Source: a virus
Lineage: Duplodnaviria; Heunggongvirae; Uroviricota; Caudoviricetes
Strand: one strand, 5' to 3'
DNA length: 33,224 nt
IMG/VR virus record: IMGVR_UViG_2698536361_000001
A model generated the notes under the pieces. That model worked only from the letters and a program-made list of their open reading frames with translations. It did no database searches and was not told the origin of the DNA. Shown here in pieces: positions 4,100 to 30,937 of the stretch; position 1 is the stretch's first letter, and the number at the start of each line of letters is the position of its first letter. Both the position numbers and the translations under genes were made by a program.

Positions 4100-4699
4100 T
4101 CAGAACTTATAACCGACACCCACGATGAAACCGTCAGTGCGCCAGTCACCACTGCCGGAGCCTTCATAAGCAATATCAATGGCCACGGATTCGGTCGGGT
4201 TAAACTGCACGCCAGCTCCCCACGCCAGAGACGTGTTGCTGTGGCGACCGTCATCACTTCCGGTCAGCACATCGTGCGTTTTCCCCTTGTTGTCAGTTAC
4301 GCGGAGGTAATCCCCGGAAAAAGTCGAAACACGGCTGTAAGCCATACCCGCCATCGCATACGCGCTGAACCATTCATTCACGCGCACAGACGGCCCCGCC
4401 ATCACGCTGAACCAGCGGTTACGCACGGAATCTTTATGCCAGCGGGTATCGCTGTAACGGGTCAGCTGACGATTCTTGTATCCTGCATAACTGAATGACG
4501 TCACCAGCCCCAGCGTGTCCGTAAATTCATAACGGTATTTCACGTTAATGCCCTTCAGGTCATCACTGCCTGGCATATCAGTATGGGTCTGAAGATACCC
4601 GGCGCTTAGTGTGGACTGATGCTCTGCTGCGCTCGCTGGCGTACCAGCGGCAACCAGCCAGACTACTGCGGACAGAATAACAGCACATAATTTACGCAT
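4100..4699 (-). CDS. lom: Outer membrane protein Lom (Ail/Lom family beta-barrel)
   Basis: 199 aa, signal peptide MRKLCAVILSAVVWLVAAGTPASA, ends ...GFIVGVGYKF; matches lambda Lom; RBS GAGAGG before the ATG. Confidence 0.9.
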   Translation of the reverse strand: MRKLCAVILSAVVWLVAAGTPASAAEHQSTLSAGYLQTHTDMPGSDDLKGINVKYRYEFTDTLGLVTSFSYAGYKNRQLTRYSDTRWHKDSVRNRWFSVMAGPSVRVNEWFSAYAMAGMAYSRVSTFSGDYLRVTDNKGKTHDVLTGSDDGRHSNTSLAWGAGVQFNPTESVAIDIAYEGSGSGDWRTDGFIVGVGYKF

Positions 4700-24124: not shown

Positions 24125-24418
24125 ATGAAAAAAATGTTGTTTTCTGCCGCTCTGGCAATGCTTATTACAGGATGTGCTCAACAGACGTTTACTGTTGGAA
24201 ACAAACCGACAGCAGTAACACCAAAGGAAACCATCACCCATCATTTCTTCGTTTCGGGAATTGGACAGGAGAAAACTGTTGATGCAGCCAAAATTTGTGG
24301 CGGCGCAGAAAATGTTGTTAAAACAGAAACCCAGCAAACATTCGTAAATGGATTGCTCGGTTTTATTACTTTAGGCATTTATACTCCGCTGGAAGCGCGT
24401 GTCTATTGCTCACAATAA
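24125..24418 (+). CDS. bor: Bor lipoprotein (serum-resistance associated)
   Basis: MKKMLFSAALAMLITGCAQQTFTV... 97 aa, lipobox LITGC; near-identical to lambda Bor. Confidence 0.9.
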   Translation: MKKMLFSAALAMLITGCAQQTFTVGNKPTAVTPKETITHHFFVSGIGQEKTVDAAKICGGAENVVKTETQQTFVNGLLGFITLGIYTPLEARVYCSQ

Positions 24419-24424
24419 TTGCAT

Positions 24425-24450
24425 GAGTTGCCCATCGATATGGGCAGCTC
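24425..24450. terminator. Hairpin between convergent bor and Rz (possible bidirectional terminator)
   Basis: Inverted repeat TGCCCAT-CGAT-ATGGGCA. Confidence 0.35.
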
Positions 24451-24911
24451 TATCTGCACTGCTCATTAATATACTTCTGGGTTCCTTCCAGTTGTTTTTG
24501 CATCGTGATCAGCCTCTCTCTGAGGGTGAAATAATCCCGTTCAGCGGTGTCTGCCAGTCGGGGGGAGGCTGCATTATCCACGCCGGAGGCGGTGGTGGCT
24601 TCACGCACTGACTGACAGACTGCTTTGATGTGCAACCGACGACGACCAGCGGCAACATCATCACGCAGAGCATCATTTTCAGCTTTCGCATCAGCTAACT
24701 CCTTCGTGTATTTTGCATCGAGCGCAGCAACATCACGCTGACGCATCTGCATGTCAGTAATTGCCGCATTCGCCAGCTTCAGTTCTCTGGCATTTTTGTC
24801 GCGCTGGGCTTTGTAGGTAATGGCGTTATCACGGTAATGATTAACAGTCCATAACAGGCAGACGATGATGCAGATGAGCAGAGCGGAGATAATCGCGGTT
24901 AACCGACTCAT
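24450..24911 (-). CDS. Rz: Spanin inner-membrane subunit Rz
   Basis: 153 aa from [21 protein letters not shown]...; lambda Rz. Confidence 0.9.
24509..24691 (-). CDS. Rz1: Spanin outer-membrane lipoprotein Rz1 (embedded in Rz, +1 frame)
   Basis: 60 aa, lipobox VVGC, proline-rich [21 protein letters not shown]. Confidence 0.85.
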
Positions 24912-24999
24912 GACATCAACACTCCAACAGCCAGAAACCACGGCCACGCATCGTTGCCATTGAATGCGAGCAACGCTGCCATGAAAAAGCAAATCATGC

Positions 25000-25497
25000 T
25001 CATTGTTGCCCCCACAAACAGACTTCACGCTCAATCTCACGGCGAGTCATCAGCCCTTTCCATTGCTTACCGCCAGCGTATGTCCAGCGCCGTAGCTGAT
25101 CACATGCGCCTTTGATATCGCCCTGGTTTATTTTGCGAAGAAGCGTCGATGTTCTGAAATTGCCAGCGCCCACGTTGTAAACGAATGAGTAAAGAGCGCC
25201 GCGCGTTGTTTCCGGTATATCGACTGTGATGTACGGGTTAATTTGTCTGGCGACAGTGGCAAGGTCTTTATTCAGGAGGGCTTTGCATTCTGCTTCGGTA
25301 TACGTTTTACCGAGCATGATGTCTTTTCCGGTGTGTCCGTGACATACAGTCCATACGCCAACGATATCTTTGTATGGTATGTAGCTGACACCTTCCAGGC
25401 CATCGTCACCACTCGGACCAGTGATGAGCACAGACGCTATGGCAACAGCCCCACCACCAATAGCAGCAGCAATAGCCTTGCGTAATGATGGCGACAT
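25000..25497 (-). CDS. R: SAR endolysin (T4-lysozyme fold, signal-anchor-release type; phage 21 R-like)
   Basis: 165 aa; N-terminal SAR segment [20 protein letters not shown]. Confidence 0.9.
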
Positions 25498-25712
25498 TAT
25501 TCACCTCTCGCAGCCTTACGCTTATCTTCTTTAATCTTGAAATAAAGGTTTGTCAGATACGTCAGCAAGCCAAATACCAGACTACCCAGCACACCTATTG
25601 CCGCCCACTGTGAGGGCGTGACTTTATCGAGCAACTGTAAAAACCAGTACCCGGCACTACCTGCTGAGGTGCCATAGGCGACACCCGTTGTTAACTTATC
25701 CATGGATTTCAT
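25497..25712 (-). CDS. S: Pinholin (class II holin, phage 21 S-like)
   Basis: 71 aa, [25 protein letters not shown]...; dual start (M1/M4); stop overlaps the R start as TAATG. Confidence 0.9.
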
Positions 25713-25852: not shown

Positions 25853-25874
25853 AAACCCGCTCGACGGCGGGTTT
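25853..25874 (-). terminator. Putative intrinsic terminator on the late strand about 140 bp upstream of S
   Basis: Minus-strand AAACCCGC-loop-GCGGGTTT followed by TTTTTCCATTTTTT. Confidence 0.4.
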
Positions 25875-26301: not shown

Positions 26302-27384
26302 ATGAAAAAATTAACAGTGGCAATTTCTGCTGTAGCTGCATCAGTACTGATGGCGATGTCTGCTCAGGCAGCTGAAATTTATAATAAAGACAGTAACAAG
26401 CTGGATCTATACGGGAAAGTTAATGCCAAGCACTACTTTTCCTCTAATGATGCAGATGATGGTGATACTACTTATGCCCGTCTTGGCTTCAAAGGTGAAA
26501 CCCAAATCAACGATCAACTGACTGGTTTCGGTCAGTGGGAATATGAATTCAAAGGCAACCGTGCTGAATCTCAAGGTTCTTCCAAAGACAAAACCCGTCT
26601 TGCATTTGCAGGCCTGAAATTTGGTGATTACGGCTCAATCGATTACGGCCGTAACTACGGTGTAGCATACGACATCGGTGCGTGGACTGACGTCCTGCCA
26701 GAATTCGGTGGTGATACCTGGACCCAAACAGATGTGTTCATGACTGGTCGCACCACAGGTGTTGCAACCTATCGTAACAACGACTTCTTTGGTCTGGTCG
26801 ATGGCCTGAACTTTGCTGCTCAGTATCAGGGTAAAAATGACCGCACTGACGTAACTGAAGCCAATGGTGATGGTTTCGGTTTCTCCACTACTTATGAGTA
26901 TGAAGGATTCGGCGTGGGTGCAACCTATGCTAAATCAGATCGCACTGACGGTCAGGTCGCCTATGGTAAGAGCAAATTCAATGCCTCCGGCAAAAATGCG
27001 GAAGTATGGGCTGCAGGCCTGAAATATGATGCGAACAATATCTATCTGGCTACCACATATTCTGAAACTCAGAATATGACCGTTTTTGGTAATAACCATA
27101 TTGCAAACAAAGCACAAAACTTTGAAGCAGTAGCACAATATCAGTTTGACTTCGGTCTGCGACCATCTGTTGCTTACCTTCAGTCAAAAGGTAAAGACCT
27201 TGGTGTTCATGGTGACCGAGACTTAGTCAAGTATGTCGATGTCGGTGCTACTTACTACTTTAATAAAAACATGTCCACTTTTGTTGATTACAAAATCAAC
27301 TTAATTGACGATAGTAAGTTTACCAAAACAGCTGGTATTGATACCGACGACATCGTCGCTGTAGGTCTGGTTTATCAGTTCTAA
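26302..27384 (+). CDS. nmpC: Outer-membrane general porin, OmpC/OmpF family (phage-borne NmpC/Lc type)
   Basis: 360 aa, signal peptide ...AMSAQA, porin C-terminus ...VAVGLVYQF; matches NmpC/Lc as remembered. Confidence 0.95.
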
Positions 27385-27572: not shown

Positions 27573-27956
27573 TCAATTAGAATTATTAGCAACGATATCC
27601 ATATCTAACCGGATATCTAATGCCATTAACATCCCTTCAATTATGCCCTCAGCCTTCTGTAACCTTTTCCCGATATAACCATCCGAGCAGCAATGCTTAC
27701 TTGCCAGTGACATGAATGTCATACCACATACATAATAATCTACTAATAAATCGTGTAAATCGCTGTTGTTCTTTTTCAGACGGGCCATGCACCCGCAAAT
27801 GATCATCGCGTCATCGTCACAACATTGCGGGCGAGATTTTACTTTTGAAGGAATTAATCCCTTAAAACCGGCGGCAACGGACGACCAGGTCACATCTTCA
27901 TGATTATTAGCCGCCCACGCTCCCCAACGCTCAAGAACCATCTGAATATCACGCAT
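27573..27956 (-). CDS. quuD: Late-gene antiterminator Q (phage 82 / DLP12 QuuD type)
   Basis: [24 protein letters not shown]... 127 aa; matches QuuD as remembered; the ORF track extends 5 codons upstream. Confidence 0.85.
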
Positions 27957-29929: not shown

Positions 29930-30937
29930 TTGTATGGTATGTCAATGGCCATGTCGGTCGGGAGTTGTGCAACACCTGTCCAGACTAATTTTCCTGGTTA
30001 CACCCCGGGTGCAGATATCATTAGTGTTTCACCCACCAGAAACCAGGTCGATCTCATTGGTGATGTTGTTTATTCCCAGATAAAAGGAACTCGTTCTGTC
30101 AGACAGCTTCACATGTCAGTTCTTGTCCCGCGAACAAATGATTTAAAACCAGCCATTATTTATTATCCCGGCGGCGGATTCATGTCTTCTGAACATGACA
30201 AATTTATTGAAATGAGAATGGCTCTGGCTGAAGCTGGTTTTGTTGTGGCCGCTGTAGAATACAGAACAATTCCTGATACATTTCCAGCACCAGTTGAGGA
30301 TGGGAAAGCTGCAATACGTTACTTGAGAGAACATGCCAGCGATTATGGGATTGATCCTCAAAGAATCGGAGTTCTGGGTGACTCTGCCGGTGGATGGCTT
30401 GCCCAGATGATGGGAACTACAAATGGTGACAAAACCTTTAATAAAGGTGACTTTCTTCAGCAATCAGCAGATGTTCAGGCAGTTGCCACACTTTATGGGA
30501 TTTCTGACTTGTTGAATATTGGCGAGGGGTTCCCTGAATCAGTGCAGGAGGTTCATCGATCTCCTGCCGTAACCGAAGCCTTAATGATCAATGGCCCTGC
30601 ATTCAGAAGTTTTGCGGGAGCCCCCATAACAGCGTCAAAAGAAAAAGCGCTAAACGCCAGTCCAATCGGACATATGAAAGGAGTAAAACCCCCATTTCTT
30701 ATTATGCATGGTAGCAAAGACACTCTGGTTTCACCTGAGCAAAGCGCCAAACTATTCAGGATGTTGAAGAAGAACGGCGATAACGCTGAGTACGTTCTGG
30801 TAGAAGGGGCTGAGCATGGCGATAATACATGGTATCAGCCAATTATTATAAACAGAGTTGTTGAGTGGTTTACTAAAAACCTGGGAACCCCCATAAAAAC
30901 CGCTACCCAACAACAAAAAACAAACGCTGACCTGTAA
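29930..30937 (+). CDS. Alpha/beta-hydrolase esterase/lipase (HSL-like), probably an ex-lipoprotein with a damaged 5' end
   Basis: Oxyanion-hole YPGGGF, nucleophile elbow GDSAGG, downstream Asp/His (HGSKDT, AEHGD). First codon of the listed ORF is TTG; in-frame ATG-TAA at 29885..29890 precedes a lipoprotein-like leader. Confidence 0.75.
   Translation: MYGMSMAMSVGSCATPVQTNFPGYTPGADIISVSPTRNQVDLIGDVVYSQIKGTRSVRQLHMSVLVPRTNDLKPAIIYYPGGGFMSSEHDKFIEMRMALAEAGFVVAAVEYRTIPDTFPAPVEDGKAAIRYLREHASDYGIDPQRIGVLGDSAGGWLAQMMGTTNGDKTFNKGDFLQQSADVQAVATLYGISDLLNIGEGFPESVQEVHRSPAVTEALMINGPAFRSFAGAPITASKEKALNASPIGHMKGVKPPFLIMHGSKDTLVSPEQSAKLFRMLKKNGDNAEYVLVEGAEHGDNTWYQPIIINRVVEWFTKNLGTPIKTATQQQKTNADL

Follow-up and report, generated by a model that had tools for sequence, protein, structure and literature searches.

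The lysis system of phage 21, with the proteins S21 and R21, is a model of holin-triggered, membrane-potential-dependent endolysin activation and is usually described as four genes; mosaicism among lambdoid phages is textbook knowledge. The same four genes, in the same order (86-100% protein identity) and with a bor/iss gene downstream, occur in phages 21 and 434, in the K-12 prophage DLP12 (essD-rrrD-rzpD/rzoD) and in the DNA studied here, the Caudoviricetes record IMGVR_UViG_2698536361_000001 of IMG/VR (33,224 nucleotides (nt), hereafter the window). The window is 100% identical to positions 2906774-2939997 of Escherichia coli UPEC132 (NZ_CP040456) and represents a lambda-like prophage at the DLP12 site, adjoining ybcK and emrE. 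In phages 21 and 434 the genes R and Rz overlap by ATGA, whereas the window has in this place a 92-nt insertion, which holds what is very probably a fifth gene, an open reading frame (ORF) of 31 codons (24908..25003, minus strand). The four canonical genes are ordinary for a cassette of the 21/434/DLP12 kind; the fifth gene lies outside the described system. As judged from its sequence and position, its product is probably a peptide of the inner membrane with an accessory role, synthesized alongside the lysis proteins.

Additional genes that lie between conserved genes of lambdoid phages are known as morons, and classical morons reportedly carry a promoter and a terminator of their own. The 31-codon ORF resembles them in being optional among close relatives and in being inserted precisely between two conserved genes, but it is not a classical moron, because it has neither promoter nor terminator of its own and is apparently coupled translationally on both sides. 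The releasin gp25 of phage Mu (DUF2730) is, according to PMC9239132, a small membrane-tethered cytoplasmic protein controlling the release of a signal-anchor-release (SAR) endolysin. The likeness to the window lies in a small membrane protein encoded beside a SAR endolysin gene, and the functional analogy is one of concept only. The window peptide differs in being almost wholly hydrophobic and 31 residues long, and its cassette contains a pinholin, whereas Mu has no holin. Neither the window peptide nor eight of its relatives yielded any Pfam match, DUF2730 included, at E values up to 1; by sequence, the peptide is not a releasin.

The open reading frame between R and Rz

On the minus strand R ends in CAA-TGA (stop at 25002..25000), and the ATG at 25003 shares this stop and opens the small ORF, which extends over 96 nt to a TGA at 24910..24908. 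Its start overlaps the stop of R and its own stop overlaps the ATG of Rz, in both cases as ATGA. The initial annotation gave 88 bp (24912..24999) as the distance between the R stop and the Rz start, and contrasted this with the overlap of R and Rz in lambda; the coordinates confirm the distance, and the lambda overlap amounts to 4 nt. Its reading of the gap as a recombination junction did not hold. In an alignment with phages 21, 434 and lambda, the window has 92 nt that phages 21 and 434 lack, as do most E. coli prophages. This insertion sits precisely at the junction of the R stop with the Rz start and holds conserved coding sequence; the complete 31-codon ORF, which lies in another frame of the gap, had been missed. 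A megablast search with the cassette returned its phage relatives and most E. coli prophages as matches in two pieces, 92 nt shorter than the window.

A scan of IMG/VR gave 129 confirmed loci, of which the sequences of 80 were analysed; together with the reference loci, these represent 23 distinct DNA alleles. The frame of the small ORF is intact in all 23, while the other two frames are interrupted by stops in 23 and in 8 alleles, respectively. Of 34 variable sites, 21 fall on codon position 3, and 23 of 43 changes are synonymous against an expectation of 20% (binomial p = 1.6e-6). We are highly confident that the 31-codon ORF is a gene, and the 88-base interval is best described, from this substitution pattern, as conserved coding sequence instead of a non-coding seam. 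The frame with stops in 8 of the 23 alleles is that of the long Rz reading (196 codons, to 25040), an in-frame upstream run of the Rz frame through the insert; because of these stops it is not conserved as coding sequence, and its initial dismissal as an artefact is supported. The possibility that the interval forms a structured RNA or belongs to a known RNA family was considered and discarded: it had no match in Rfam, and its predicted fold is unremarkable (z = -1.26).

The same arrangement of R, 96-nt ORF and Rz, with both ATGA overlaps, is present in E. coli phage 2B8, in Emek, BTP1, SEN22 and PS34, and in others, and this recurrence goes largely against a breakpoint peculiar to the window. 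In the five named phages the ORF has 95-99% nucleotide identity to that of the window and likewise follows an R21-type endolysin gene. The phages differ from the window in their holin genes (a 67-residue type in the P22-like phages) and in their Rz alleles, which are 56-62% identical to the window Rz; other phages with this layout also carry Rz alleles other than that of the window. Among the 80 IMG/VR loci, the ORF follows an R21-type endolysin gene wherever the upstream gene was recovered, and it occurs next to at least four holin types and at least four Rz alleles; the gene combination of the window accounts for 5-6 of them. The ORF is absent beside 79 of the 80 closest R homologues, where Rz starts at the ATGA overlap.

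Regarding complete E. coli genomes, the 96-nt ORF was found in 60 of 5426, every time between rrrD and an Rz-type gene and in no K-12 genome. Most of the cassette is present in 2564 genomes, and 12 complete genomes carry all of it with 100% identity; about 98% of the similar E. coli prophages, like phages 21 and 434, are devoid of the ORF, R and Rz overlapping directly. A fifth gene in a model cassette is thus carried by about 1% of complete E. coli genomes, and also by well-known Salmonella phages such as BTP1. Among phage records the ORF occurs in 18, including 2B8 and the P22-like Salmonella phages BTP1, SEN22, PS34 and Emek. It is annotated as orf30 in Emek (YP_006560616.1) and otherwise in only a few records; it bears no annotation in RefSeq E. 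coli records, and the NCBI annotation pipeline PGAP leaves it out of the identical UPEC132 record. In the RefSeq records of BTP1 (NC_042346) and 2B8 (NC_049952) the small ORF is unannotated, and Rz is started 36 nt upstream, inside the small ORF (locus position 1557 against 1593), the canonical Rz ATG aligned with that of lambda being at 1593 in both; this is a lesser version of the 196-codon misreading. Such over-long Rz starts in RefSeq phage records are corrected by the finding of the ORF, and 'gaps' in compact phage operons appear worth checking for very short genes. Identical copies of the peptide have been predicted on 561 contigs, under the name 'hypothetical' each time. A single-sequence phmmer search of 1.84 billion representatives returned nothing beyond the cluster of the peptide itself and a single chimeric product of read-through, and a full-text literature search found no paper describing the 31-codon ORF. 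The gene for this predicted 31-residue membrane peptide is largely unannotated and apparently unstudied.

Divergent relatives were found with tblastn in Salmonella phages UPF_BP1, SPN3UB and FSL SP-016 and in Klebsiella phage RCIP0114 (43-48% identity), in all four cases directly downstream of a SAR endolysin gene; homologues of the same identity also directly follow SAR endolysin genes in Enterobacterales prophages. They keep length, motif and position, and the ATGA overlaps recur at both ends of the homologue in UPF_BP1 and RCIP0114, while in SPN3UB it overlaps the endolysin gene by 8 nt. In SPN3UB and FSL SP-016 (locus positions ~1487-1890) the homologue is unannotated; it is followed there by a hairpin with a T-run and then, just before Rz, by a second unannotated ORF of 45 codons with a transmembrane segment (VIDISKLIRELRLMIEQLPNWKFILIWLVLFVAAIGYLIGQIRWW). 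Across the family the signature consists of a short, often basic N-terminus, an Ala/Gly-rich hydrophobic stretch of 13-18 residues, the motif (S/N/T)G(H/N)D(G/A)W(G/P)W and a hydrophobic tail; all 20 aligned members share G, D, W and W without exception. The window peptide has the architecture of the family: a length of 29-39 residues, a hydrophobic helix, the G-x-D-x-W-x-W turn and a short hydrophobic C-terminal helix. Motif-bearing divergent loci numbered 62, and at 34 of them a GH24 endolysin gene (product ~57-61% identical to the query types) precedes the motif, ending in nearly all cases 56-57 nt before it. Three Enterobacterales subfamilies (43-48% identity) keep the slot after the SAR endolysin genes of two clades.

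All eight divergent members tested match phrog_14810 (E = 1e-7 to 1.4e-3), the 43-48% identical relatives with E = 3e-4 and the more distant members with 1e-7. PHROG 14810 is a phage protein family of unknown function. The likeness consists in the length of about 30-40 residues and in the G(H/N)DGWGW core of the divergent relatives, whereas in the window peptide (NGNDAWPW) the two glycines are replaced by A and P. The window peptide matched no family in Pfam or NCBIfam and no holin family in Pfam or PHROGs, and a functional assignment from these collections was abandoned, the sole match being to phrog_14810. Regarding distant members, those at the Pasteurellaceae loci L119 and L147 have a DUF1804 gene on one side and, downstream, a large ORF (269 residues in L119, 556 in L147); those at L136, L141 and L149 follow SSB-like genes ending in DDDIPF, and that at L137 follows a trypsin-like peptidase gene. 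In a Pfam scan, the neighbours of the distant members mostly had no match; the matches obtained were to DUF1804 and a trypsin-like peptidase.

Mosaic structure of the cassette

The initial annotation described the cassette as a mosaic of phage 21-type S and R with lambda-type Rz/Rz1, joined across the interval. The cassette is indeed a mosaic, but its joints, as mapped by sliding identity and alignment, lie elsewhere, namely inside S and in the 5' end of Rz. The 5' part of S matches phage 434 (100% over 25720-25641 and at least 90% on to ~25484). From ~25600 through R, the small ORF and the first Rz codons (ATGAGTCGGTTA), the window matches phage 2B8 (89-100%), and from ~24815 through the rest of Rz/Rz1 into bor it matches lambda, 21 and 434 (97-100%). 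The first Rz codons are of the 2B8/Emek type, and the gene is of the lambda/21 type from ~24815 downward. The intervening ~85 nt of Rz (~24815..24899, minus strand), which code for the transmembrane domain, are nearly identical among lambda-, 21-, P22-, 2B8- and WAT-type Rz genes. These matches place the crossover between the ORF-bearing block and the lambda-type Rz somewhere in ~24899..24815, about 10-95 nt inside Rz, and the other within S at ~25600, with none in 24912..24999. On this evidence the cassette is a three-part mosaic, of a 434-like 5' part of S, a 2B8-like block from the 3' part of S through R and the ORF to the start of Rz, and a lambda/21-like remainder of Rz with Rz1 and bor. 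The mosaicism is most simply described as homologous exchange within conserved coding sequence, the interval being the cargo of one block. The pairing of S21/R21 with near-lambda Rz/Rz1 does not explain the gap, because this pairing is native in phages 21 and 434, where R and Rz overlap by ATGA.

At its ends the 92-nt insertion is flanked by an imperfect direct repeat, ATGAGC (24998..25003) and ATGAGT (24906..24911) on the minus strand; lambda-type Rz itself begins ATGAGCA. Because of this microhomology, gain or loss of the ORF by recombination at these points would be possible. The last ~25 nt of the small ORF (GTTGGAGTGTTGATGTCATGAG, 24912..24935, minus strand) are similar to the 3' end of lambda R (GTCAGAGAGATTGATGTATGAG, also ~25 nt, locus positions ~1445-1470), with the two read in different frames, a resemblance which hints at a conserved upstream leader carried by the Rz module.

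Predicted peptide, possible role and competing explanations

The encoded peptide is very hydrophobic (grand average of hydropathy 1.36). A single-sequence AlphaFold2 model shows a helix over residues 2-15, a turn over 16-19 (GNDA) and a second helix over 20-30, with a mean predicted local distance difference test score of 80, and suggests a helical hairpin embedded in or associated with the membrane. A run GGGGG (25009..25013, minus strand), 5 nt upstream of the small-ORF ATG, is a probable Shine-Dalgarno sequence; in the phage 21 record the homologous G-run is annotated as the ribosome-binding site of Rz (locus 2202-2205, with Rz at 2211). The Rz of the window is preceded by GGAG (24922..24925, minus strand; 10 nt upstream of the ATG, -14 to -11), which lies within the small ORF and would be a weak and distant Shine-Dalgarno sequence; for this reason, Rz translation is probably coupled to the end of translation of the small ORF. 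On the minus strand, no site resembling a promoter or a terminator was detected within or beside 24908..25003.

Given the ATGA overlaps with R and Rz, the ORF would be read from the same Q-dependent late transcript as S, R and Rz. Ribosomes would most likely load at the G-run, whose phage 21 counterpart is the ribosome-binding site of Rz, and on completing the small ORF they would be handed over to Rz. From its position and this translational coupling, the peptide would have to be made together with S, R and Rz late in infection. It might then insert into the inner membrane as these proteins accumulate and there adjust pinholin/SAR-endolysin lysis at its membrane-dependent step, in the timing or the sharpness of release. 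That the peptide modulates this membrane step is the interpretation preferred here, with a probability of roughly 50%. The gene itself is an optional accessory, which in enterobacterial phages always follows a SAR endolysin gene in the loci compared. If the ORF does modulate lysis timing or endolysin release, phages with the gene (2B8, this prophage) and without it (21, 434) would provide a natural presence/absence system for the tuning of SAR release. A more far-reaching proposal, which we consider unlikely, is that the peptide founds a new class of lysis-cassette proteins, a SAR-endolysin-linked membrane hairpin that controls the exit of the endolysin from the membrane and forms a fifth component of the pathway, acting by binding the transmembrane segments of the SAR endolysin or pinholin or as a small ion-conducting oligomer via its buried Asn/His-Asp-Trp turn.

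Several observations weigh against a role in lysis or against parts of the proposed picture. With about 11-14 residues each, the two helices fall short of the usual length of a membrane span, which leaves the topology uncertain. No R residue discriminates ORF-carrying from ORF-lacking cassettes, and the window R itself carries the 'ORF-lacking' variants V18 and D31. As no R residue co-varies with the ORF, there is no sign of co-evolution of ORF and endolysin, and co-evolution with particular R alleles was rejected. A comparison of the motif with the SGNDGLEG segment that follows the SAR domain of R21 gave an hhalign probability of 4.5% over a 6-residue match; the idea that the peptide is homologous to, or mimics, the R21 SAR domain together with SGNDGLEG was dropped, since the hhalign match is not significant and the motif is kept beside endolysins without this segment. 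The match of the window peptide itself to phrog_14810 is weak (E = 0.0034, 18.3 bits), and its link to that family therefore rests on transitive similarity. Distant members of the family, finally, sit outside lysis cassettes in alpha- and beta-proteobacterial and Pasteurellaceae prophages, from which it follows that the small-protein family is not specific to lysis.

Some of these points favour a different explanation, that the ORF is a real gene whose product is cargo unrelated to lysis, a small membrane peptide using the late operon for expression only and acting, for example, in superinfection exclusion or otherwise on the host membrane. We regard this as a serious though tentative possibility. 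It agrees with the distant same-motif members in non-lysis neighbourhoods, with the missing co-variation of ORF and R and with the dispensability of the ORF, which is lacking beside nearly all of the closest R homologues (79/80). Yet the ORF brings along neither a promoter nor a terminator, and random insertion does not predict that three Enterobacterales subfamilies with 43-48% identity should keep the slot after SAR endolysins of two clades. If the peptide had no role in lysis, the ORF would still be a clean example of a mini-gene spreading by recombination between conserved flanks.

Explanations in which the peptide itself does not matter fare worse. An action of the interval in cis, as a spacer or RNA structure setting the translation of Rz/Rz1 relative to R, is considered improbable: with ATGA coupling at both ends the ORF necessarily affects the delivery of ribosomes to Rz, whose GGAG (-14 to -11) is weak and distant, but no significant RNA structure (z = -1.26) and no Rfam family were found in the interval, the amino-acid motif and the length are kept at 43-48% identity while the DNA has diverged, and the same peptide family also occurs away from Rz genes. 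The least probable explanation, to which we give hardly any weight, is that of the initial annotation, in which the interval is a non-coding scar of the joining of phage 21-type S-R to lambda-type Rz/Rz1. The interval is absent from lambda, 21 and 434, and the imperfect direct repeat ATGAGC/ATGAGT at its ends could mark an illegitimate joining; however, phages 21 and 434 pair the same modules without the interval, the interval is also present beside P22-, 2B8- and WAT-type Rz genes, and the crossover to the lambda-type Rz maps ~10-95 nt inside Rz. A non-coding seam was rejected on these mapped crossovers together with the coding substitution pattern and the divergent protein homologues in the same position.

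Canonical lysis genes and neighbouring genes

The initial assignment of S and R to the phage 21 kind and of Rz/Rz1 to the close vicinity of lambda agrees with the Pfam matches and with protein identities of 95-100%, or 86% for S against S21. S (25497..25712, minus strand, 71 codons) exceeds the gathering score of Pfam PF04971 (Phage_holin_2_1; E = 2e-35) and is 100% identical to S of phage 434 and 86% identical to S21. Its start reads MKSM in the sequence, with a dual start at Met1 (25712) and Met4 (25703), as in phage 21, the record of which annotates both products (S71 antiholin and S68 holin). By family profile and dual-start motif, S is classified as a phage 21-type pinholin/antipinholin gene.

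R (25000..25497, minus strand, 165 residues) matches Pfam PF00959 (Phage_lysozyme; E = 1.3e-45) and is 95% identical to R21 and 96% identical to R of phage 434. The residues E35, D44 and T50 are present, at what we take to be the positions of the Glu-Asp-Thr triad of R21. Residues 8-27 form a Gly/Ala-rich, weakly hydrophobic N-terminal segment nearly identical to that of R21. R is assigned by this similarity to the SAR endolysins of the R21 type (GH24 lysozymes), with residues 8-27 as the predicted SAR segment.

The i-spanin gene Rz (24450..24911, minus strand, 153 residues, ATG at 24911..24909) matches Pfam PF03245 (Phage_lysis/Rz; E = 2.6e-54), and its product is 97% identical to lambda Rz and 95% identical to phage 21 Rz. 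The gene of the o-spanin lipoprotein Rz1 (24509..24691, minus strand, 60 residues) is wholly embedded in the +1 frame of Rz; it matches Pfam PF06085 (E = 2.9e-20), with 100% identity to Rz1 of phage 21 and 98% to that of lambda. By sequence the two constitute an embedded two-component spanin of the lambda family, with a predicted N-terminal transmembrane domain on Rz. The bor/iss lipoprotein gene (24125..24418, plus strand, after the annotation of the identical UPEC132 record) runs convergently towards the lysis operon, and does so in lambda, 21 and 434 as well.

Between quuD (27573..27956, minus strand) and S lies an OmpC/NmpC-like porin gene (26302..27384, plus strand) on the strand opposite to the lysis genes. 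Because the porin gene is oriented against Q and the lysis genes, the late transcript must cross it in antisense. A porin gene (NmpC) occupies the same place, between Q and S, in the 434B record. A terminator-like GC hairpin with a T-run (25874..25853, minus strand) lies on the strand of the lysis genes about 140 nt upstream of S and may be a Q-dependent read-through site; a weak match to the Rfam family Trp_leader at 25874..25853 (E = 0.52) is probably just this hairpin. Further cargo-like genes according to the UPEC132 record are an alpha/beta hydrolase gene (29945..30937, plus strand) between the nin region and the recombinase gene ybcK, and a gene for an Ail/Lom-family outer-membrane protein (4100..4699, minus strand) in the tail-fibre region.

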